Source: an uncultured bacterium (GTDB lineage Bacteria > Armatimonadota > UBA5829). From it: a stretch of DNA of 50,282 bases. Of the stretch, positions 6 to 43,286 are shown piece by piece. The stretch lies in contig CAYSLA010000005.1 of assembly GCA_964431685.1 (NCBI GenBank), positions 1-50,282 of the forward strand, given 5' to 3'. Under the pieces are notes generated by a model. The model saw nothing but the letters and a program-made list of their open reading frames with translations, searched no databases and had not been told where the DNA came from. The translations under genes and the position numbers were made by a program. The number at the start of each line of letters is the position of its first letter. The first letter of the stretch is position 1.

Positions 6-81
6 TGGCTCCCCCGCCTGGACTCGAACCAGGAACCTACTGGTTAACAGCCAGCCGCTCTGCCGATTGAGCTACAGGGGA
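6..81 (-). tRNA. tRNA-Asn (anticodon GUU), CCA encoded
   Basis: The reverse complement folds as a cloverleaf. Acceptor TCCCCTG/CGGGGGA, D-arm GCTC-AATCGGCA-GAGC, anticodon loop CT-GTT-AA, T-arm CCTGG-TTCGAGT-CCAGG, discriminator G plus CCA. Same layout as E. coli tRNA-Asn. Confidence 0.9.
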
Positions 82-11169: not shown

Positions 11170-11266
11170 ACTACGTCATGCCGGTCCTGAATCAAGTTCA
11201 GGATATCCGGCAACCATCCGGAGAAGGGATGGGCCCTGAAACGAGTTCAGGGTGACGTGGTTTCTC
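11170..11266. repeat. composite palindromic element, copy A (multi-hairpin, closing stem ACGTCA/TGACGT)
   Basis: Shares its flanks and central hairpin with 20843-20925: ACTACGTCATGCCGG...CCGGCA[A/C]CCATCCGGAGAAGGGATGGG...AGTTCAGG[G/A]TGACGTGGTTTCTC. It contains CCTGAATCAAGTTCAGG and CCCTGAAACGAGTTCAGGG. Confidence 0.8.
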
Positions 11267-11307: not shown

Positions 11308-12426
11308 CTATGGTTCCACGATTCGCACAATGTCCGAGGAAGCTCTCACGAGCAGTAGAGGATGGAGACTGCCGTCGGGCGCCTTCGTGCAAGAGGATAT
11401 TGCCGTTATCGCCACATAGGAACCAACTGGCACGGGGCTTATACTCGATGGCACACTCACCGCCATATCCGCTCCGGAACCATCGCTGATCTTGATGCCA
11501 GAGCCGGTTTGCTCTGTAACAACCCCGGTTGTCCGCACCAGTAGCCCTATGTTGCACGGCCCGATGCCTCCCACGACCCCGCGCTGGCCGGTTCCTCTGA
11601 GTGGGTCATAGAACCAGTCGGCCCCGCCAAGCGAGGCGTTGTTCATCGCCAGTGGAGCGATGCTGCCGCTTGCCGTCCTCACCGCGGCGCTAGCGTTTAT
11701 GCAGCGTTCGCCGTCATTTGTGGTCGACGCGACCCCAGCCACAGTTACGCGGGAGCCCGCCGCTAGTCTGTTGTTGGGCCAGTTGACCCGGATTCCGTGA
11801 GACCGATCTTCCGATTCGACATAGAACATATCGGCAAAGGATCGCGTGATCACCGCTCCTTCCATGTTCACGGGCACTCCATCCGGAGCCAGTTTCGAGC
11901 TCCTTATGCCAGTGTAGCTGCCGATAACGGTAAGATCATCCACCGCAAGACCGCCGGGCCCACTGCCCGGGTGTCCGCTCAGAGCAATGCCGGCGCCCTG
12001 GGTCCACCGGTCGGCCGATGAGTCACTGACCGTTGCCGAGTGGCTGACAGGAAGCCCGTTCGCGCTGACACCATCCCACATTATCGTCAGATCGGTCTTG
12101 GACGAGCCGACGTCCACTTTGACAGACAGGGTGGACCACTTCGCGAGATCAACGCCAGTGTGCGGGCTCGAAGCGTTTGTGTATAGGCTGGTCACTGTGC
12201 CGTCGGCGTTCACGCGGTTGATCATCAGCACAAGCGAGCCGCTGCTGATGCTTGTCGCCCTGGCCTCGTATCCGTAGTACGTGGGAGGTGCGCCTTGCGC
12301 CTGCGGGCAGGGGCCGTTGTTGCCGTGGCCACAGGCTGACCGATGGCGAGCCGGTGCCGGTAAAGCGAGCCCGAACACTCGCGACATACGATGGGCTTGA
12401 CAGCGGCATCCCTCGCCGCCGACCAC
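11308..12426 (-). CDS. hypothetical protein, paralog of the decayed gene at 15446-16270
   Basis: 372-aa ORF. Motifs shared with the 15.4-16.3 kb locus: DL[AN]KWSTL, SGSIAPLA[ML]NN, GIG..NIGLLVRTTG, ISSC. No signal peptide is seen and the true start is uncertain. Confidence 0.55.
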   Translation of the reverse strand: MVGGEGCRCQAHRMSRVFGLALPAPARHRSACGHGNNGPCPQAQGAPPTYYGYEARATSISSGSLVLMINRVNADGTVTSLYTNASSPHTGVDLAKWSTLSVKVDVGSSKTDLTIMWDGVSANGLPVSHSATVSDSSADRWTQGAGIALSGHPGSGPGGLAVDDLTVIGSYTGIRSSKLAPDGVPVNMEGAVITRSFADMFYVESEDRSHGIRVNWPNNRLAAGSRVTVAGVASTTNDGERCINASAAVRTASGSIAPLAMNNASLGGADWFYDPLRGTGQRGVVGGIGPCNIGLLVRTTGVVTEQTGSGIKISDGSGADMAVSVPSSISPVPVGSYVAITAISSCTKAPDGSLHPLLLVRASSDIVRIVEP

Positions 12427-15058
12427 TACTGCTTCTCTATCACCAGGAGCCGCAACCCCATAGGGTCAATCGTCACGGATGCCCTGTTATTGGTTAGTTC
12501 CACGTCGGAATTGCCCAAATAGTCCTTGCACGCAGTCGAGAGTCCAGTGAACGCGCTCATATCCAGGGTGACACTCTGCGGCTTGTCAGACCAGTAGTTG
12601 GAGACAACCAGCACAAGCGCCTTTTCGGTATCATAGTAACTCACGAAGACCTCGTCATTGTCCTTTGACACCAGGCTCTTTTTGTTGAAGAACGCAGTAA
12701 ACGTATCGGACGAGAGCTGATACTTGTCATACAACGCCCACATTCGCTGGCTGTAGTTGCCGTATCCCAGCGCCACGCTGCGAGTGTACGCGTCCACAAG
12801 CAACCCCTGAGCCCAGGTCGTGACGATGGGAGTCTCCGGCCTTCGCAGCAGATCGCACGGAACGCCATAAAGCTTTCCATTCATCATCGCACGCAACGCG
12901 CCCGGCTCGGTTCTGGCCATGGGCTCTTTGAATATGGAGCCCTCTCCAGTCCAGTAGGCGCTGATAAGCCCCATCCTTAACGGGTCGGGCCATCCTAAGT
13001 GGCTATCGATGATAAACTCCGGATCTTTCTTCATGCCCTCGTTGTAGATATACTCCATCAGTCTACGATGTTTTCGGATAGCAAACGTACTGATCAGGCG
13101 TCCATACGGATCCACCGTGCCGCATCCGTGCTTTGCGTTAACACACGCAGTCCAACCCAGCCCACCATCGAAGAACACTCCGCTGCCGTCATAGTGGCGG
13201 ACGGCCTGTATGATGCCTCGCGCAAAGAAGTCTCCAAACTCGCTGTTATAGCAGACACCGTAAGATAGCTGTTCGGGGTCTCCAACTCCCTGGTAGATCG
13301 CCAAGCTATACCCTCCAAGATCGGGGTATCCGTTTGGTCTGGCAAGAAACAGATCGTGACACAGTGGAAACTCCGGAATCATATTGGATATCTGAAGGCC
13401 GAAATACGCGATCGTCTTCAAACCATTGGCGCTTCGCCGCGGCGACATAATGCGGCATGTCATCTTCTCTGGCTCCCACCCAGTAGCTGTGATAGTCGGT
13501 CCAGTTTTCGTGGGCGAGAGTAATCTTCACGCCGCTGCCCGCAAGATGTTGGATGAAGCTGCTCTTCTCTCCTGTCGGCGATGTCGCAGTTGGCACATAA
13601 GCTTTGCGGTGATTATTGCAGTCCATCCGGTAGTATGCGTGAAAATCTCTAGTGTCGTTGCGAAGCGGAACTGGAATCATTCCGAATCCGAAGTTTACCT
13701 CGTGGCGCTTCCATCGGGTTTTGCCGTCACTAGTTCGAAGTCTAATCGTAGCACGGCCATCCGGAGTGCGCTCAACTCCGCAGCCTCGATCGTAGTTGCT
13801 CAGATTCCAGCCCACCGGGCCCTCGTTGCATACAAAGAGACCGCGGTATGCTTCGTTCGTATCGGTGGCCAACCCCATATATGAAGTCATGGGCAAGTCG
13901 GTCTTGTCCGTAGGCCTCCCGCATTCTACCGAACGTCTGGCATTCACTGTAGGGACGCGTGCTTACGGGCTTGGCGGGCGATTTTCGGCAAATCAGCATC
14001 CCAAGACAATCCATCGTGACTGCCGCAGGATATCACGATCCAGCTTCAGAGGAATGACCACCTCCAGGTGTCCGTATTCAAAGGAGTTCTTCGATGAGAT
14101 CTTTACATCGTACCAGGTGAAACCGTCATATCGATGATCCGCGGTCACCGTGACAGACTTTCCATCGACTTCGCCTACCGACTGCAACACGATGGCGTTC
14201 TTGTTTCTCGATATGACAGCGACCTTACCGCCGATAGGCAACTTCTTCCCATCAAATAGCAGGTGGATGGGCTTATCCAGAATCCCCCGGGAATCGACCT
14301 CAATCTGGTTTGCAGGTTAACCGTGCTTATCTTGTCCCTGCCCGGCAGGATCTTCTCGGCAACAGTGCGGGACGAACTCCCGGGAACCTCAATCTTGGTT
14401 CCCCCCACTTCAACTGCGTGGATTTCGGCAGTCGGATTCTTGACCACGCAGTCAACAGGGAGCGACACATTTCCTCGTGTATCATACTTAACGGCCCCGA
14501 TGCCCACTTTCTCCACGAACGGCAAGGACTTTTGAGAGAACCAAAGTCTGGAATGGCGCCACGGCGAATGCAGACGGAGTAATGACGGCAAGACAAGTAG
14601 AAACTGTTGACCGGCGAACCACTGTAAACCGCCACCAAAGCCTTCAAGGTTGTGCTCGCAGAGGAATCGAATCCTATATCCAAATACGGTATCTTGATCC
14701 GGACCCGCCAGCAATCTCGCTGCCATCCGGACATCGCTGGTTGCCATGCCGTTCCACGTGCGGTCCTGTATCTTTTCATCAGCGAAAGTGCCCAGAACAT
14801 TCACGGCATAGTGAAAATAGGGACTATCCTCGGAGGCCTTCAGATAGAGCTCCACACGGTCGTCACGGCAAGATGTTGCCATCCCGTTCGCTTGATCCTG
14901 TAGGTTTCCAGCTCGACTTCACAGATACCGTAAACACGAAGTTGAGACCATCTGCGTCGTAGTTCACCGACCATGTCCCAATAAACGCCCTTGGGCAGAG
15001 ATATCCAGTTGGCTCCCGTGGAATCACAGGCGAATACTGTCTGCCGCCGGATAGTCAA
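12426..15058 (-). pseudogene. decayed putative glycoside hydrolase (CBM9-like N-terminus plus a domain homologous to the C-terminal half of 45483-48461), multiple frameshifts
   Basis: Homologous segments are spread over at least five frames (track ORFs 14840-15058, 14175-14882, 14327-14800, 13993-14241, 13306-13947, 12426-13463). One example is HYVAAAKR switching frame to NGLKTIAYFGLQ near 13430. Confidence 0.65.
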
Positions 15059-16270: not shown

Positions 16271-16495
16271 GATGCTTGCCGACCATATCGACGGATTGCT
16301 GGCATATATCAAACACAACATAACCAACTCCTATGCGGAGTCCATAAACGGAATGATTCAACTACTAAAAGCCAATGCACGAGGCTTTCGAAGATTCGAG
16401 AACTTCAGGGTAGCCATACTGTTTAACTACGGCAAACTGCATCTCTACCCACAAGAAATCTCATAGAGCCTCGTTTTTCTTGCTGCCGGGCTGGG
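16266..16495 (+). mobile_element. ISL3-family IS remnant (transposase C-terminal ~65 aa plus probable right end)
   Basis: ORF 16272-16466 reads DHIDGLLAYIKHNITNSYAESINGMIQLLKANARGFRRFENFRVAILFNYGKLHLYP, which matches the ISL3 transposase C-terminal signature. The frame opens immediately after a stop, so the rest of the transposase is absent. Confidence 0.65.
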
Positions 16496-20842: not shown

Positions 20843-20925
20843 ACTACGTCATGCCGGACTTGATCCGGCACCCATCCGGAGAAGGGATGGGTCCGGCAGC
20901 CAAGTTCAGGATGACGTGGTTTCTC
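20843..20925. repeat. composite palindromic element, copy B (72-nt core 20846-20917)
   Basis: Closing stem ACGTCAT/ATGACGT. Hairpins GCCGGA-cttga-TCCGGC and ACCCATCC-ggagaag-GGATGGGT. Flanks are identical to copy A. Confidence 0.8.
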
Positions 20926-24171: not shown

Positions 24172-24840
24172 CCTTAACCCGATTCAGGACTGATCCCGCC
24201 ACTCGGCATGTGCGGGACAAGTGCCGGTATGGCCTTGTTTCCGGCAGAAGTGAGGAATCTGCCCTTTGAATCCTCGGCACGCTCAGCAGATTCCTCCGTT
24301 CCATCGCAATGATGCGTGCGACGAGCGTTAGTCGCCTGACTGCCCCGCGTTTTTCAGCGGCACGCTCATGTCGGTACTGGTGACCTCATTGTCACCATCA
24401 GTATCGCCGTTTAAGAGCAGCGTGTCAAGAGTGACGGACTGACCTGCCCAGACGACCACACCGGGGAACACCCGTCTCAGGAATCCGGAAGCGCTCACCT
24501 CGACGTCGTACACACCGGGGTCGAGGTTAAGAAACGCGTAGCCGCCAGGGTTCTGGGCAAGAGTAACGCTCTGGCTGGCAACGGTCACACCCTGCTGCTT
24601 CAGGTCGATAGAGACCGGAAGCAAATCCAAACTCCCAATGAAGCCCTCGAGAGTTATAGACCCTCCCAGGGAGCTTATGTCGCCGCCGTATCTGATGCCG
24701 CTTGAGAGCCTCAGCTCGTCCATACTGCCGAGCAGGTTGTACCAGTTGTGCCCGTCTTGTCTCCCGGCCACCGTCGCGGGGCCGAGCACAGGATCCGGCG
24801 TGCCCATGCTAGTAACATCCTGCGCAAAGACCTGAACTCC

Positions 24841-24864
24841 CCCTGAATCAAGTTCAGGGCAAGA
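24841..24864. repeat. 24-nt palindromic unit R1 (CCCTGAATCAAGTTCAGGGCAAGA)
   Basis: Exact 20-nt core. It lies between LamG segments ...GGRNII and GVQVFAQD, where the paralogs have KFWKN. The frame is not preserved here. Confidence 0.9.
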
Positions 24865-25134
24865 TAATGTTCCGCCCGCCGGACTCTGCGTCCCTCTGCC
24901 ACGTCACCGCGGCGTGAGTCCAGGTGTTCAAGTCCCAGTCGGTTGACGGATCCATAACAGACTGCCAACCGCCCTTGGCATACCAGCCAACCGACATGCG
25001 CATCCGGCCGCCGGTGTAGACCAGCGACCAACTGTAGTCAGCGCCGGTATAGTTCTGCAGGAGCACCCAGTAGCTATTCTCCAAAGTCGGATATAGCCAC
25101 GCTTCGGCAGTAAGGCTGTCTATTCCAAACCCAA

Positions 25135-25154
25135 CCCTGAATCAAGTTCAGGGC
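25135..25154. repeat. palindromic unit R2 (20-nt core)
   Basis: Exact core CCCTGAATCAAGTTCAGGGC. Removing 22 nt (25133-25154) joins YKKV to GFGIDSLTAEAW in frame. Confidence 0.9.
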
Positions 25155-25177
25155 GACTTTCTTGTAGACGCCGCTCT

Positions 25178-25201
25178 CCCTGAATCAAGTTCAGGGCAAG
25201 C
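25178..25201. repeat. 24-nt palindromic unit R3
   Basis: CCCTGAATCAAGTTCAGGGCAAGC. A clean 24-nt insertion within LamG coding sequence. Confidence 0.95.
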
Positions 25202-25219
25202 TATAGTTAACTTGCAGAG

Positions 25220-25243
25220 CCCTGAATCAAGTTCAGGGCAAGC
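25220..25243. repeat. 24-nt palindromic unit R4
   Basis: Identical to R3 and separated from it by 18 nt (6 codons, LQVNY region). Confidence 0.95.
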
Positions 25244-25322
25244 TGTTGCCGAAGCTGGTCTGTCCGGCGATGTAGTGATTGGGCTGGGCGGCTAGACCAG
25301 TGTTGAGCGTCCCATGCACGTC

Positions 25323-25342
25323 CCCTGAATCAAGTTCAGGGC
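25323..25342. repeat. palindromic unit R5 (20-nt core) at a gene-fragment junction
   Basis: Exact core with a tail (TCGA) that differs from the consensus. It supplies the TGA stop of ORF 25336-27774 and directly abuts the truncated LamG fragment. Confidence 0.9.
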
Positions 25343-27774
25343 TCGATTCCGTCGCGCAGAAGCACCATCCGAAGACTGGGGACGATGTTCATGTTCTTCT
25401 CCGGAAGGTCGGTGCCCCCTGAATCAAGTTCAGGGCAAGCTCTGGGATCGGGCGGGTAGAAGTAGGCGAGAGTGCCGTTCCCATATTGTCCGCCTGGATT
25501 AACCCAGGGATTCTGGAAGACTACGTACTCATTCTCCTGCCACCATATCGCTATCGCCCAGGTGGACATACCCTTCGCGCCCATCCACCACACCTTCGGC
25601 GCCATAAGCCGCTGGTCGATGGAAGGAGCGTCTATGAACTGATGGATGGTTTGTGTGTAGTAGGTCCAGACCTCTTTGCCGGCCGGGTACGCAGCAATGG
25701 CCGCCGGCGAAGCGATGTTGAGCGCATCGTTATTCTCTGGTATGAGAATATCAACGTGGTTGCGAAGAGCATCATAGGCCTCGGCGTTGTAGACGTAGGC
25801 ACCCATCTTCACGTCCTTAGCGTGCGGCTGCAGACGGAATGCGTCTATGAAGTTACGGACTCCCTGATACGCGTAGGGCTGCGGTTCGTCAATCTGAACA
25901 AACGCGTTATCAAGCCAGCCTTTGGCCGCCAAGTGAGCAGCAAGCGGCTCGTAGTAGCTGGTCACATATGGCGTCGCGCTCTCCACTGTGGTGTCTGCGA
26001 GAAGAGGGCCGGACTCGTGGCCGATTGAGTGAGTACTCAAGTTCAGTTCATCCAAAACACGGGAGTACTCCACGTCGTATTCTGCGGGGAACGCCGGGAG
26101 CGTGCCTGTGTACCACACGTAAGGAATCAAAGGATTGGTCTCGGCTATCTTGTAGCGAGCCATCTCGGAGACATAATCTCTCGTCAGGCTGTATTTGTCC
26201 ACGCGCTCAGTGACCTTGTGGAACGGAAAAACCTCGGCGCTGGCATATCTGGACATCTGGAAGGATGTCTTGCAGCTCGGCCGCTCCGGCAGAACGAAAT
26301 TCCACACCTTGAGTTCAACCGGCACATTGACCACGCCGGCTGACGTATGCAGGTTCACCTGGCCGTTGTAGGTTCCCGCAGGCATCTGCCTGGGAATGGT
26401 CACGTCTACCCAGATAATGATATTGGGATCACCCGCGTCGAACGACACCGGGGCAAATTTCACCAAAGGATCCGGCAGGTTACCGGTGAATGCGGAGCGT
26501 ATCGGTTCGGTCAGGAACTGGCCCGTCTTCGACGGAGTGTGAATAGGCACATAGCAGGCGCGGCGAATATCGAAATTCCTCTGTGGAACGGTTACGCCGC
26601 CGGGACCAGTAAGACTCGCGCTGACTGAGGTAATCGCTCCCGCCGAGGTTGGGCGGAAGACCAGTTGCAGCGCCTCCGACTCATTACGCGCACATGAGAT
26701 AGAGACCTTGGTACGGTTGGCGCTCGGTGCCTGAGCATTCTCCAGAACCTTTTTTGTGGTGGACGTATACCAAAGACTGCCCAGGCTGCCCGATGGCAGC
26801 GAGTATGATATGTCTTCCTCAACCCATTCGGTGGCTGCAAGCTTGGTAACGTTCAGCGTCTGAGACGGAAGGGAAGATGCCTGCTGACTCGGAACGTGCG
26901 GTGTTATCCCTTCCAGCGGAGAGTAGTACAGGTCATAATACTTTGTGCCACTCGAGGCTGCGTTCAGGACGAACCCCACCTGGCACTCGCGCAAAGAGAT
27001 ATCGTCAGCGGCGGACCCCAGTATACGCTCAAACCGCACTTGCAGTTTGTCATTGATCCAACCCGCTTTGTCCCACGTGTTGAAGTAGTACTCGCGTGAA
27101 TACCATCCGGTTGCAGGTATGTACGGATCGCTGTAGGTGTGCGATACGGGCTGCCACCATAGGTCGTTGACGTTGGAATACGCAGCGGACGAGCCAGACC
27201 CCTTCGCCCAATGGGAGTACCGATACCACGTGTTGGGGTTAACGGTGACATACTGCCAACAGGCGGACCGATCCTGGGCGGTGCCCTGCACAGTCATACA
27301 CCAACTGCCGTCGTGTGAGTTCTGCTGCAAGACAAACGATGCCGGCTGGTCTATGTTCCATCCCACCGGCACGCCGCCGGACTGCTGCTCGAAGTTGCCG
27401 TTCACTACCAGTTCCTGAGTTCCCACCACGATCTTGTAGGCCGCGGACACATTGTCGCTGATCAGGTTGCCGCCCGCGTCGACCTCAACGAGTTTCACGT
27501 TGTCATAAGAGAAGTACTCGTGCTGGAACTTGAACTCGGCCTTCTCATTTAGCCAACTGGTGATCGTCTGAGGCGTCAGATTGAGCGCATACGAACCGGC
27601 TGACGGCACGCTCACAGATATGCGAACTCTGAACGGGTAGTAACTGTCCGTCCAGGGAGCCGCATATACTCCCAAAGCACCAATCACCAGAATGACCGTG
27701 ACGGCCAGAATGCAGAAAAACGATTGCCTGGTTCTGCCAAGGATAGTCTTAGACATATTGTTGTCCATCATCAT
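25336..27774 (-). CDS. DUF4091-like putative glycoside hydrolase (GH123-like), N-terminal membrane anchor; C-terminus truncated
   Basis: 812 aa. Motifs ARNESEALQLVFRP, ELKVWNFVLPE, GNGTLAYFYP...PSLRMVLLRDGIE. The usual continuation (DYE...; compare SIRWEVWAESLQDYAILQ in 48494-50095) is missing, and the ORF stops inside R5. Confidence 0.75.
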   Translation of the reverse strand: MMMDNNMSKTILGRTRQSFFCILAVTVILVIGALGVYAAPWTDSYYPFRVRISVSVPSAGSYALNLTPQTITSWLNEKAEFKFQHEYFSYDNVKLVEVDAGGNLISDNVSAAYKIVVGTQELVVNGNFEQQSGGVPVGWNIDQPASFVLQQNSHDGSWCMTVQGTAQDRSACWQYVTVNPNTWYRYSHWAKGSGSSAAYSNVNDLWWQPVSHTYSDPYIPATGWYSREYYFNTWDKAGWINDKLQVRFERILGSAADDISLRECQVGFVLNAASSGTKYYDLYYSPLEGITPHVPSQQASSLPSQTLNVTKLAATEWVEEDISYSLPSGSLGSLWYTSTTKKVLENAQAPSANRTKVSISCARNESEALQLVFRPTSAGAITSVSASLTGPGGVTVPQRNFDIRRACYVPIHTPSKTGQFLTEPIRSAFTGNLPDPLVKFAPVSFDAGDPNIIIWVDVTIPRQMPAGTYNGQVNLHTSAGVVNVPVELKVWNFVLPERPSCKTSFQMSRYASAEVFPFHKVTERVDKYSLTRDYVSEMARYKIAETNPLIPYVWYTGTLPAFPAEYDVEYSRVLDELNLSTHSIGHESGPLLADTTVESATPYVTSYYEPLAAHLAAKGWLDNAFVQIDEPQPYAYQGVRNFIDAFRLQPHAKDVKMGAYVYNAEAYDALRNHVDILIPENNDALNIASPAAIAAYPAGKEVWTYYTQTIHQFIDAPSIDQRLMAPKVWWMGAKGMSTWAIAIWWQENEYVVFQNPWVNPGGQYGNGTLAYFYPPDPRACPELDSGGTDLPEKNMNIVPSLRMVLLRDGIEP
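25417..25440. repeat. 24-nt palindromic unit R6, in phase inside the DUF4091-like ORF
   Basis: Identical 24-mer. On the minus strand it occupies exactly 8 codons (GCT TGC CCT GAA CTT GAT TCA GGG = ACPELDSG). Confidence 0.95.
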
Positions 27775-27898: not shown

Positions 27899-28843
27899 CT
27901 ACTGACCGATCTCGTCAATGTTCGGGATAATAGTCCCTACATCGGCAGCATCAATGGTGTTGTCACCGTTCACATCACCGTTAGTGAGCGAGAAGTTGGC
28001 AGAAGCGGTCTGCCCGATCTCGACCACCACTCCGGAAGCTTTCTGCCGAAGGAATCGGCCCGCGTTGGCGTAGACGTCGTAGGTTCCCGGTTCAAGCTTG
28101 TTGAAACTGTATGAACCCGGATTGCTGGACACGGTCACCGTCTGCGTGGCAACCGTATTGGCCCCCTGTTTGAGCTCAACCTTGACCGGGACCGGCGCGA
28201 AGCTCGCACTGACGTCCTGAAGCGTAATCTGCCCAGCGATGTTGCCCACGGGCACTCCGTATCTGAGGACATTGGACATCCTGAACTCATCGATCTGGCC
28301 GAGGAAGTTGTACCAGGGATGACCGTCTACCCATCTACCGCCCACACTGGCAGGGCCGCCAATTGGCGCCGCCAGACCAAGCAGCGTAACATCCTGCTCG
28401 AAGACCATAACGCCGTTCTTCCAGAACTTGATGATGTTAGCTCCGCCGGTGTCTGACCTCTTCTGATAGGTAACAGCAGCATGCTGCCAGGGCGCGCTCG
28501 GCCCCGCCTCCCACTCAGTCACGTCATCTTGTACCAGTTGCCAGTTCCCGCTGGCATACCAGCCAAAACCCATGCGCATCTTGCCGGCAACATAGGTGAA
28601 GCTCCACTGGTAGTTGCCGCCAGTGTAGTTCTGGATCATAACCCAGTAGCTGTTCGCCTCGTAGGGCTTAATCCAGCACTCAATCGTCAGATCGTCGGTA
28701 TAGGAACCAAGAAGGGCGTTAGCGGGCAGGTCAATCTTCTTATACCCTCCATCGTAGACAATCTTCAGGGCATTTCCAAAACCCGCTTTGTCACTGGCAA
28801 CGTAGTGGTCTGCCTGTATCGCCTTCAGCCACAGTGATACCTG
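27899..28843 (-). pseudogene. LamG / CarboxypepD_reg / dockerin-like paralog lacking start, signal peptide and N-terminal ~55 aa
   Basis: The stop-to-stop frame is open from 28843. Homology begins at QADHYVASDKAGFGNALKIVYDGGYKKIDLP (~28816). The first Met in the track (28639) lies inside the LamG domain. Confidence 0.75.
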
Positions 28844-29879
28844 TTACCACCTGCTTCAGGAACCCTGGCGCGGATATCGCCACGTCATACGTTCCGGCCT
28901 CCATATTGCCGAAGCTGAATATTCCAGGGTTGCTCGTGAAAGTCACGGTCTGAGTCTGGAGCACCGTGGCGCCCTGCTTCAGCTCTACCGTCACCGGGAC
29001 GAGCGTAAGGTCTCCGACGTATCCCTGCAGTGTAACTGTGCCGCCAATAGATATCTCCTGGGTTCCGTACCTCAGTACATCTGAGAGCCTGAACTCATCG
29101 ATCTGGCCCAGCACGTTGTAGTAAGGATGGCCGTCCATCCTCCCACCAAGTGTGGCGGGGCCGTTGACCGCGGTCGGTTCGCCAGTATCCGGATCGGGTC
29201 CTCCTTCGCTGAACCCCCAACCAGTGACATCCTGCCGCAGGACTTGCTCGCCGTTCTTCCAGAACTTTACTATGTCACGCCCGCCAGTGTCGGATCTTCT
29301 CTGAACAGTTACAGCGGCGTGATTCCAGACACCGATTTCCCAGTCCGTCGAACTGTCGGTGACGTCCTTCCATCCGCCAAAGCCGTACCAGCCCAGATAC
29401 ATGCGCATCTTCCCAGCATCGTACAACATACCCCAGTTGTAGTCGCCGCCGGTATAGTTCACGAAGATGACCCAGTACGTGTTGGGCTCGACCGGGCGAA
29501 TCCACGCCTCCATCGTAAAGTCGCTCGGCCCCATCCAGAACTTCACATTGTCCGGATAGGGCACTTCAGGGAAACCTACATTCTTGTAGATGAACCCGGT
29601 ATAGTGAATGCGCAGAGCGTTGCCAAAACCGGCCTTGTCACTCACAACGTGGTGATCGACCTGTCCGGCCAACCCCGTATTGAGCGTTCCATTTACGGGG
29701 TTAGGAGCAGAATCAATAACTGTCGTGGACGTCAGGTCTTCGTCAAAATGAAGCAGTAGCCGAGTGTTCGCGTCCGCGTCGAACGGCTGGGTCCAGTCGG
29801 TGTAGTTCTGTGCGCACAGCGGCGCGCAAAGCGCTACAAACACAGCAAGAGAAAGCCACACCAATTGTCTTCTCAACAT
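28791..29879 (-). pseudogene. LamG / CarboxypepD_reg paralog lacking its C-terminal dockerin-like end
   Basis: RBS GGAAGGAGA, then ATG 29879 (MLRRQLVWLSLAVFVALCAPLCAQ signal peptide). The ORF ends ...GFLKQVVTGITVAEGDTGRPLRCQ*, where the paralogs continue about 35 aa to the NGDxDGDN motif. Confidence 0.7.
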
Positions 29880-30133
29880 TACATGTCTCCTTCCACGAAA
29901 TAATCGAATGACTCGACGGTCACTCGTCAGGTTTTGCCCGGAACGCCGCTGCATACCGCCAGGCGCATGCCGGGCCAGATCAGACTACAACTGTACTGGC
30001 TGCCACACCTCCCCCCAAGAATGTATCGTGCAGCACTGCACCAATCACCCAAGTCCTGCCAGGCCGGATCCGATTGGCATCACAAGGCCCTACGGGTCCG
30101 ACCCGCTCTTCTGTGTCGCGTAATACTACTGTT

Positions 30134-42416: not shown

Positions 42417-43286
42417 CTACTTCGATCTGCGGCGAAGCGCAGAACCGATTGCGGCACAGCAACCCATCGCGAGCACCGCTAGTGATGCGGGCTCAGGAAC
42501 AGGAGCAGCTCCATAACGGATCGAGTCCGAGATTCTAAGCTCATCCATCTGGCCAAGGAAGTTGTACCACGGATGGCCATCAATCCACCTGACAGCCACT
42601 CCTGCCGGCCCGCCTATCGGATTCGGCAGGCCGAGAAGTGTACTGTCCTGCTCGAAGACCATGACGCCATTCTTCCAGAACTTCACGACATCAACTCCAC
42701 CGGTATCCGATCTTCTCTCGTGAGTCACAGCAGCGTGCACCCAGGGAGCATTCGGTCCGGCCTCCCAGTCCGTCACGTCATCCTGGACGACTTGCCACGC
42801 ACCGGCGCTGTACCAGCCAAGGCCCATGCGCATCTTGCCAGCGACATTGGTGAATGTCCACTGGTAGTCGCCTCCAGTGTAGTTCTGGACGATATTCCAG
42901 TAGCTGTTCGCCTCATACGGCTTGAGCCAGCACTCGATGGTCAAATCTTTGTCGCCAATCGCCAACTTGTCATCCGCGGGCAGGTCGATCTTCTTGTACG
43001 CGCCGTCGTATACGATCTTCAGCGCATTGCCAAACCCGGCTTGGTCACTCGCGACATAATGGTTTGCCTGGCCGGCCAGACCGGCGTTCAGAGTGCCATT
43101 GATGTTGTTCCCGCTGGAGTCGTTTGCGGTAACAGCATCCAGACCGTCGTCGAAGCGCAGAAGCAGCAAAGTGTTGGCATCTGCATCGAACGGCTCGTCC
43201 AGTCAGTGTAGTTCGCCGCAAAAGCCGCTGTAAGGGCAAACAAAGAAACGACTACCACACACAAAACTGTTCTGAAGTACTTCATC
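42417..43286 (-). pseudogene. LamG (Laminin_G_3-like) protein with PEP-CTERM anchor; 1-nt frameshift after the signal peptide
   Basis: MKYFRTVLCVVVVSLFALTAAFAANYTDWT is in one frame and EPFDADANTLLLLRFDDGL... in the next. C-terminus VPEPASLAVLAMGCCAAIGSALRRRSK (PEP-CTERM). Confidence 0.8.

Follow-up and report, generated by a model that had tools for sequence, protein, structure and literature searches.

The question raised by this locus is how a 20-nt palindrome came to lie exactly where two unrelated, truncated genes meet. The stretch analysed (here called the window) comprises 50,282 nt from an uncultured bacterium of the Armatimonadota (GTDB lineage UBA5829; assembly GCA_964431685.1, contig CAYSLA010000005.1, forward strand) and has the same sequence as contig Ga0212121_10000340 in JGI 3300022556. 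The palindromic unit, CCCTGAATCAAGTTCAGGGC, occurs in six exact copies within 596 bp, all on the + strand and numbered R1 to R6 by rising + strand coordinate (Table 1). One of them, R5, forms the junction between the 3′ end of a GH123/DUF4091 glycosidase-like gene and the interior of a gene for a LamG-domain protein, referred to as LamG-3. The initial annotation of the window had ascribed this arrangement to an active element, two copies of which, one in each gene, would have recombined and deleted the DNA between them. That the element rearranges the locus is borne out by empty sites for R1, R2, and R6, whereas for R5, which lacks the tail that follows other copies, recombination between two copies is not the best explanation.

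The junction at R5

The glycosidase open reading frame (ORF) ends ...LLRDGIEP*, and its TGA (25336-25338) is supplied by R5, as had been described. Family members were said to continue beyond this point, and all ten homologues do so: these proteins (849-913 aa, 43-53% identity; the named ones are from Pirellulales and Verrucomicrobia metagenome-assembled genomes) go on after RDGIE with D[FY]EYA... for ~63 residues. Because all ten run past RDGIE, and none naturally ends there, the glycosidase gene is truncated at its 3′ end by ~63 codons. The right flank of R5 (TCGATTCC) consists of glycosidase codons straight after the unit, which adjoins GAG (E811) on that side; its left side adjoins the codon for the D of DVHGTL... 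in LamG-3.

On the minus strand directly after R5, and in another frame, the sequence reads DVHGTLNTGLAAQPNHYIAGQTSFGN (DVHGTLNTGL...), which aligns from residue ~87 of LamG-1, the paralogue at 28791-29954 that was used as the reference. LamG-3 begins in mid-domain, without start codon or signal peptide, as previously noted, but the missing part amounts to ~60-90 codons rather than the ~45 residues first estimated. What survives of the gene is divided into pieces that keep the order of the paralogues, in three different frames, with a unit between each pair. LamG-3 is a pseudogene, because R3 and R4 are read in the stop frame (LP*T*FR).

Two unrelated truncated genes are joined exactly at the unit, in agreement with the initial annotation, and neither the lost glycosidase C-terminus nor the lost LamG-3 N-terminus has a match elsewhere in the window (tblastn). 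The idea that the LamG fragment might belong to the glycosidase protein was considered and rejected; in fused relatives LamG is N-terminal (residues ~100-250) and precedes the glycosidase domains.

At least seven independent assemblies share the junction base for base: JGI 3300022556, JGI 3300025145 (locus L153), ENA ERZ27245470 (L147), Logan SRR5214704 (L148), and contigs of runs X2, X3, and X4, the last three from different samples and studies. Since the same bases recur in independent assemblies, the junction is not chimeric. A real deletion has occurred at R5, and with it the last ~63 glycosidase codons, the intergenic spacer, and the first ~60-90 codons of LamG-3 are gone; its size, estimated from these parts (63 codons and stop, spacer, 60-90 codons), is roughly 0.45-0.65 kb.

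The 24-nt element and its empty sites

The unit folds into a hairpin with a 7-bp stem and a 5-nt loop (TCAAG), with a folding energy as single-stranded DNA of -5.9 to -6.5 kcal/mol (z about -3.6 to -3.9). Its chance level was obtained from 100 dinucleotide-preserving shuffles of the window with up to three mismatches allowed; the expected number of matches in shuffled windows was 0.02, and none of the 100 shuffles reached eight. Successive copies from R1 to R6 are spaced 294, 43, 42, 103, and 94 bp apart. The unit is followed by the tail AAGCT at R3, R4, and R6, by AAG only at R1, and by no tail at R2 and R5; TCGA stands in its place at R5, consistent with the earlier remark that this copy departs from the AAGC consensus.

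At R6, the glycosidase gene reads through the insertion (...PDPR-ACPELDSG-GTDL...), which is exactly eight codons long, and ACPELDSG is missing in all ten homologues. The corresponding empty site was found in a ~95%-identical strain, on a 243-nt contig (X12/X13) that has exactly 24 nt fewer and codes PDPRGT. In LamG-3, by alignment with the paralogues, R3 and R4 are also clean 24-nt insertions: subtraction of 24 nt at R4 yields FGN(A/T)LQVNY, colinear with FGNALRIHY and FGNALKIVY, and the same operation at R3 yields VNY(E/K)SGVYKKV, to be compared with IVYDGGYKKI and IHYTGFIYKNV. No target-site duplication is present at R3, R4, or R6.

The R6 empty site, the restored FGNAL (R4) and VNYESG (R3), and the 24-nt tandem period at a second locus (L128, see below) agree, and they fit a mobile element of 24 nt without coding capacity, CCTGAATCAAGTTCAGGGCAAGCT, which enters on the 3′ side of a C and makes no target-site duplication. 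All that the ten sites have in common is this C directly 5′ of the insertion, or else a T directly 3′ of it. Together with the preceding C, the element forms the 7-bp hairpin followed by a short single-stranded tail (as a single-stranded oligonucleotide, AGCTTGCCCTGAACTTGATTCAGGG). On the minus (G-rich) strand the order is a 5′ tag, AGCTT, and then the hairpin (AGCTT-GCCCTGAACTTGATTCAGGG), resembling a tagged repetitive extragenic palindrome (REP).

R1 and R2 replace native sequence. The native allele at R1 has GTTCTTCCAGAACCG (15 nt) where the window has CCCTGAATCAAGTTCAGGGCAA (22 nt), and restores the in-frame GGRNIIRFWKNGVQVFAQ. The native allele at R2, on an X9 contig covering 24986-25178, reads ...CCAA followed by ATTTGACACTCTGGGG..., in-frame VYKKVALPQSVKFGFGIDS; the contig has one difference from the window outside the unit, and the native allele is 2 nt longer. 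Most simply, R1 represents a 24-nt insertion plus a 17-nt deletion, and R2 a 24-nt insertion plus a 26-nt deletion. In both copies the left unit boundary is intact and part or all of the tail has been lost along with adjoining native DNA, as at R5; at R2 the deletion may have taken place between the CAGGGC of the unit and a native CAGGGC. Native hairpins as targets of R1 and R2 were considered and rejected, the replaced segments folding weakly (z = -1.3 and 0.15, not significant).

An X4 contig chain (24779-25497) is native at R1 with R2-R6 unchanged, and X6 is also native at R1, the youngest copy. Because the X4 haplotype keeps R2-R6 without R1, the R5 deletion must be older than R1, and the copies were gained one after another. 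Empty-site alleles for R1, R2, and R6 are thus found in near-identical or ~95%-identical strains; since both filled and empty alleles exist at these three positions, the element has recently been mobile in this population and rearranges the locus.

A second unit-bearing site, the 1.5-kb locus Ga0136653_10092594 (L128), was assigned to the population of the window because its flanks equal loose ends in X1-X3. It carries six unit copies in one orientation, four dispersed and two more in tandem, with three in a 24-nt array; they lie in another interrupted reading frame, and the interrupted host gene has no Pfam match. All 12 copies at the two loci agree in orientation with their own locus, and the element inserts in one orientation, preferentially near existing copies. 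On the coding strand, the unit is open in two of the three reading frames and gives stop codons in the third. Among the matches listed in other genomes, 24% of units lie in open frames of at least 600 nt, versus 73% of control positions. No family for the unit was found in Rfam at the gathering threshold over the whole window, a tRNA gene (9-81, minus strand) being the sole match, and a search at E ≤ 10 over 24700-25600 gave chance matches only; the unit sequence was not found in the literature searched.

Table 1. Unit copies, the two genes joined at R5, and further features of the window, in window coordinates
Feature	Position	Strand	Description
R1	24841..24863	+	Unit + AAG; replaces 15 nt of native LamG-3; frameshift
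R2	25135..25154	+	Tail-less unit; replaces ~22 nt of native LamG-3; frameshift
R3	25178..25202	+	Unit + AAGCT; 24-nt insertion in LamG-3; stop frame
R4	25220..25244	+	Unit + AAGCT; 24-nt insertion in LamG-3; stop frame
R5	25323..25342	+	Exact 20-nt hairpin, no AAGCT tail; identical across independent assemblies
R6	25417..25441	+	Unit + AAGCT; in-frame 24-nt insertion in the glycosidase gene
GH123/DUF4091 glycosidase-like gene	25336..27774	-	812-aa ORF; Pfam GH123_cat
LamG-3 pseudogene	24328..25322	-	Laminin_G_3, CarboxypepD_reg, dockerin-like tail; no 5′ end
LamG-3 piece	25322-25245	-	DVHGTLNTGL...
LamG-3 piece	25219-25203	-	LQVNY
LamG-3 piece	25177-25155	-	SGVYKKV
LamG-3 piece	25134-24864	-	GFGIDSLTAEAW...GGRNII
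LamG-3 piece	24840-24328	-	VQVFAQDV... to dockerin-like end
ISL3 remnant	~16272-16466	+	64-aa ORF; Pfam DDE_Tnp_ISL3
Two degenerate unit relatives	11185 and 11234 (span 11185-11253)	+	Three mismatches each; sole other matches in the window

Origin of the deletion

The reading that we favour, at a probability of about 0.5, is that one copy inserted in LamG-3 and that a deletion on its tail side then extended into the glycosidase gene. A single copy would have entered LamG-3 just 5′ of the surviving DVHGTL codons; the deletion would have run from the tag-side foot of the hairpin into the glycosidase gene, to a point just after codon E811. It might have been caused by aberrant cleavage and joining at the tag by the mobilising enzyme, perhaps a single-strand HUH transposase like those in the IS200/IS605-RAYT group (RAYT, REP-associated tyrosine transposase), or by hairpin-stimulated (replication) slippage at microhomology. 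Erosion on the tag side would be expected if aberrant cleavage and joining at the tag gave adjacent deletions, and one-sided loss is observed at three of the six copies (R1, R2, and R5), always on the tail side and amounting to 17 nt, 26 nt, and ~0.5 kb. A single copy with a deletion is favoured because it involves fewer events and the same pattern is seen at R1 and R2. The host genes appear to have been expendable already, since all four LamG paralogues of the window are damaged.

By analogy, the hairpin, short tag, absence of duplication, uniform orientation, and clustering would suit single-strand transposition of the HUH tyrosine transposase type. GC skew on the + strand is negative throughout 10001-50000, and the minus strand carries most genes; the + strand, on which all six unit tails lie 3′, is therefore probably the lagging-strand sequence. 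That the tag precedes the hairpin on the G-rich strand fits strand-specific single-strand transposition without proving it.

Comparison with related genomes, which the initial annotation had recommended, gave the empty sites described above and no undeleted R5 arrangement. The glycosidase protein search returned nothing between 100% and 52% identity, and a search with the 159-aa C-terminal ORF of LamG-3 returned only itself. The deleted junction is present in every contig of the species from JGI, ENA, and Logan; the contig of the ~95%-identical lineage (X12/X13) ends at 25355, 12 nt before R5, and the neighbourhood of a distant relative (P0002), with no LamG gene downstream, is uninformative. 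The failure to recover the undeleted arrangement counts against the favoured reading, the original insertion site of R5 being placed by inference only, and so do several further points. Visible microhomology at R5 is at most 1 nt (C at 25342), and a ~0.5-kb deletion with so little microhomology is intrinsically rarer than one between two direct repeats of 24 nt. Short Logan contigs at 2-4x depth are the source of the empty-site alleles, and the X9 contig has three further differences in its last 30 nt, leaving the CAGGGC microhomology at R2 uncertain. The window contains no transposase gene except an ISL3 fragment, and the enzyme proposed is a guess. At L128, all six copies keep full tails; tail erosion is not obligatory.

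The origin proposed initially is possible but less probable: of two direct copies, one would have stood near the 3′ end of the glycosidase gene and the other within the 5′ part of LamG-3, and recombination or slippage between them would have left a hybrid R5. The dense copies (42-294 bp spacing) make a copy in each gene plausible, and R6 shows that the glycosidase gene can be hit; moreover, the copies are without exception direct repeats, an arrangement that leads to deletions, and loss of the DNA between direct repeats of 20-24 nt at a distance of 0.5 kb is a common class of event. However, the product should retain the AAGC(T) tail of the glycosidase-side copy, which R5 does not have, and two insertions, an earlier tail loss, and then recombination would all be needed. 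Nor does L128 show a polymorphic deletion between its copies in three runs (X1-X3), and no parental two-copy arrangement was found. Recombination between two copies could be retained, tentatively, if the glycosidase-side copy had already lost its tail.

It is improbable that the deletion was unrelated to the element, the unit having landed later at the junction or been copied in as filler during break repair. At ~28811 two other truncated LamG paralogues are joined without a unit, which shows that deletions lacking the unit do occur here, and the decay of all four LamG genes indicates that deletions are tolerated at this locus; yet a tail-less unit falling exactly on an existing junction would be a coincidence, and the repeated one-sided loss ties the deletions to the element. 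An artefact (chimera or adapter) or an organised array (CRISPR-like, shufflon, or programmed recombination cassette), as might be suggested by short palindromic repeats that are identical and separated by unique DNA, is very improbable and was rejected: JGI, ENA, and Logan assemblies from different samples show identical structure, the unit is also present in complete long-read chromosomes of other phyla, the copies are all direct with no Rfam match and no cas or recombinase genes nearby, and a CRISPR array in particular was rejected on the absence of cas genes and on “spacers” that are irregular in length (42-294 bp spacing) and are consecutive colinear pieces of one LamG coding sequence.

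Distribution of the unit and comparison with known elements

A scan of one genome per species listed more than 116 loci with the exact 20-mer, for which we estimate a chance expectation of ~one match in 596 Gb. The loci listed are in Nitrospirota, Dehalococcoidia, Rhodospirillales, Thermaceae, Patescibacteria, Elusimicrobiota, Brocadiia, Bacteroidota, and others, some of them on complete long-read chromosomes, and their flank consensus is (G)A-unit-A(G/A)GCTC. Units lie in frame in conserved genes encoding LeuRS (L034:5059, L092:2061), class II ribonucleotide reductase (L069:946), and MurE (L015:1457), and also in those for GlnE (L007:6540), a GltB-like protein (L013:4387), acyl-CoA dehydrogenase (L061:4401), and PBP2 (L031:6176); the peptides encoded by in-frame units are ALNLIQG, TLNQVQG, DPESSSG, and CPELDSG. 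In Nitrospirota (e.g., L015, L034, L069, and L103) the unit has the same direct heptamer repeat on both sides, such as GAAATTC. The 24-mer with the AAGC tail was found at 29 JGI metagenome loci. The identical 20-mer core across phyla points to conserved trans-acting machinery.

Hairpins with other stems and the same centre (GAACTTGATTC/GAATCAAGTTC, e.g., GTCATGCTGAACTTGATTCAGCATC) were seen in many unrelated genomes (e.g., L014, L016, L057, L074, L100, and L140), and in L128 another hairpin (CCCGAACTTGATTCGGG) has this loop in the opposite sense. A large hairpin superfamily defined by its loop is suggested. The AACTTGATT loop appears to resemble the sites nicked by HUH proteins of the pC194/phiX174 type (CTTG^AT), and also the CTTG/GTTC targets of IS91. 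A broader proposal, which we regard as speculative and hold with low confidence, is that the 20-24-nt hairpin might be among the smallest mobile elements, active today with an identical core across phyla and moved in trans by a widespread enzyme, a candidate being an HUH nuclease that reads the AACTTGATT loop; according to frame, it would kill genes or add loops of 7-8 residues (LeuRS, ribonucleotide reductase, MurE), and its tag side would seed deletions of tens of bases to ~0.5 kb.

REPs mobilised by RAYTs would, by analogy, be the nearest mechanistic relatives of the element. Like REPs, which are palindromes of 20-40 bp, the unit forms a stem-loop (~20-25 nt), and both have a conserved 4-5-nt tag at the hairpin foot, are non-coding and free of duplication, and vary in presence among strains. 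REPs have been reported inside genes, for example in uvrA of Opitutus terrae, and are cleaved by RAYT at the tag (PMC3733652), the position at which R1, R2, and R5 are eroded. The REP tag is GTAG or CGTC (PMC3733652), whereas that of the element is AGCTT/GCTT (AAGCT on the + strand); the six copies in the window are direct singlets in coding sequence and not extragenic inverted doublets of the REP/REPIN type; and REP families are usually lineage-specific, unlike a 20-mer that is identical across many phyla. No RAYT or Y1 HUH transposase gene was seen in the 50-kb window or in the 1.5 kb of L128. The hairpin, the absence of duplication at R3, R4, and R6, and the orientation bias (12 of 12) are also features of IS200/IS605-type transposition. 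A specific tetra- or pentanucleotide target 5′ of the insertion is a further feature of that type; at the ten sites here, the shared sequence is the C on the 5′ side or the T on the 3′ side.

Among very small elements, the small dispersed repeats (SDRs) of cyanobacteria invite comparison. The work of Elhai et al. in 2008, in Genome Res 18:1484, reportedly described SDRs of Nostocaceae as hairpins of 21-27 nt, nested in their own copies and with a heptamer context, and is said to have proposed them as the smallest mobile elements. The 24-nt size, the hairpin, the tandem triple at L128, and the Nitrospirota heptamers correspond to this description of the SDR families (SDR1-8). In contrast to SDRs, the unit is found across phyla, the gene content of the window (with the named glycosidase homologues) suggests a non-cyanobacterial host, and the mobility of the element is backed by empty sites in natural populations and tied to adjacent deletions. 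SDRs are mentioned in passages of PMC5861425, PMC3116915, and PMC2884548, the first of which speaks of them as reported only in Nostocaceae (PMC5861425).

Rickettsia palindromic elements (RPEs) insert in frame in genes and are translated as extra peptide (PMC10969869), as R6 is read as eight extra residues and as units in other phyla are read in frame within genes such as those for LeuRS, ribonucleotide reductase, and MurE; RPEs differ in their size (~100-150 bp, compared with 24 nt) and in being restricted to Rickettsia. Miniature inverted-repeat transposable elements (Correia/NEMIS, ERIC, and Nezha) are likewise non-autonomous, repeated, hairpin-forming, and able to interrupt or modify genes, but they measure 50-500 bp and have terminal inverted repeats and target-site duplications, in contrast to 24 nt and no duplication here.

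To our knowledge, mobile DNA shorter than ~50 nt is barely documented, and its main case, the cyanobacterial SDRs, reportedly rests on comparative inference in one family. The evidence presented here is more direct, comprising filled and empty alleles, exact in-frame insertions, and repeated one-sided deletions that include a gene fusion, and R5 is a rare documented case in which a very small element breaks genes and marks deletions in a wild population. If general, the process would be a neglected cause of pseudogenes, of small indels, and of inserted protein loops among uncultivated bacteria, and also of contig breaks and mis-called ORFs in metagenome assemblies.

Several minor features were also recorded. 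A fusion without a unit lies at 28766-28841 (junction ~28811), where LamG-1 loses its last ~35 residues after ...GITVAEGDTG and LamG-2 follows in another frame with a mid-domain start (DHYVASDKAGFGNAL) and ~95 residues missing; the junction is also present in a 99.2%-identical strain (L150). The fourth LamG gene (42417-43285) has a frameshift at ~43196 that parts the signal peptide (MKYFRTV...ANYTDWT) from EPFDADANT..., and it ends in a PEP-CTERM-like tail (VPEPASLAVLAMGCCAAIGSALRRRSK). A possible split GH123_N gene at 11308-13947 was considered and set aside, tblastn with the 992-aa paralogue giving no match. L128 contains, at 600-800 and 1386-1457, a 21-nt tandem repeat (CCCTCACATCTCTGCCGTCAT) in five copies and a 21-nt repeat (CGCCTTGATCGGGCACGTCAT) in two. 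The two degenerate relatives of the unit sit in an intergenic two-hairpin repeat of ~90 nt (11173-11266), of which a second copy is located at 20848-20925. The first hairpin of the latter is GCCGGACTTGATCCGGC; in the copy at 11173 its loop is swapped for TCCTGAATCAAGTTCAGGAT, a near-copy of the unit, an arrangement suggesting that a hairpin resembling the unit was inserted there, nested, at an earlier time.

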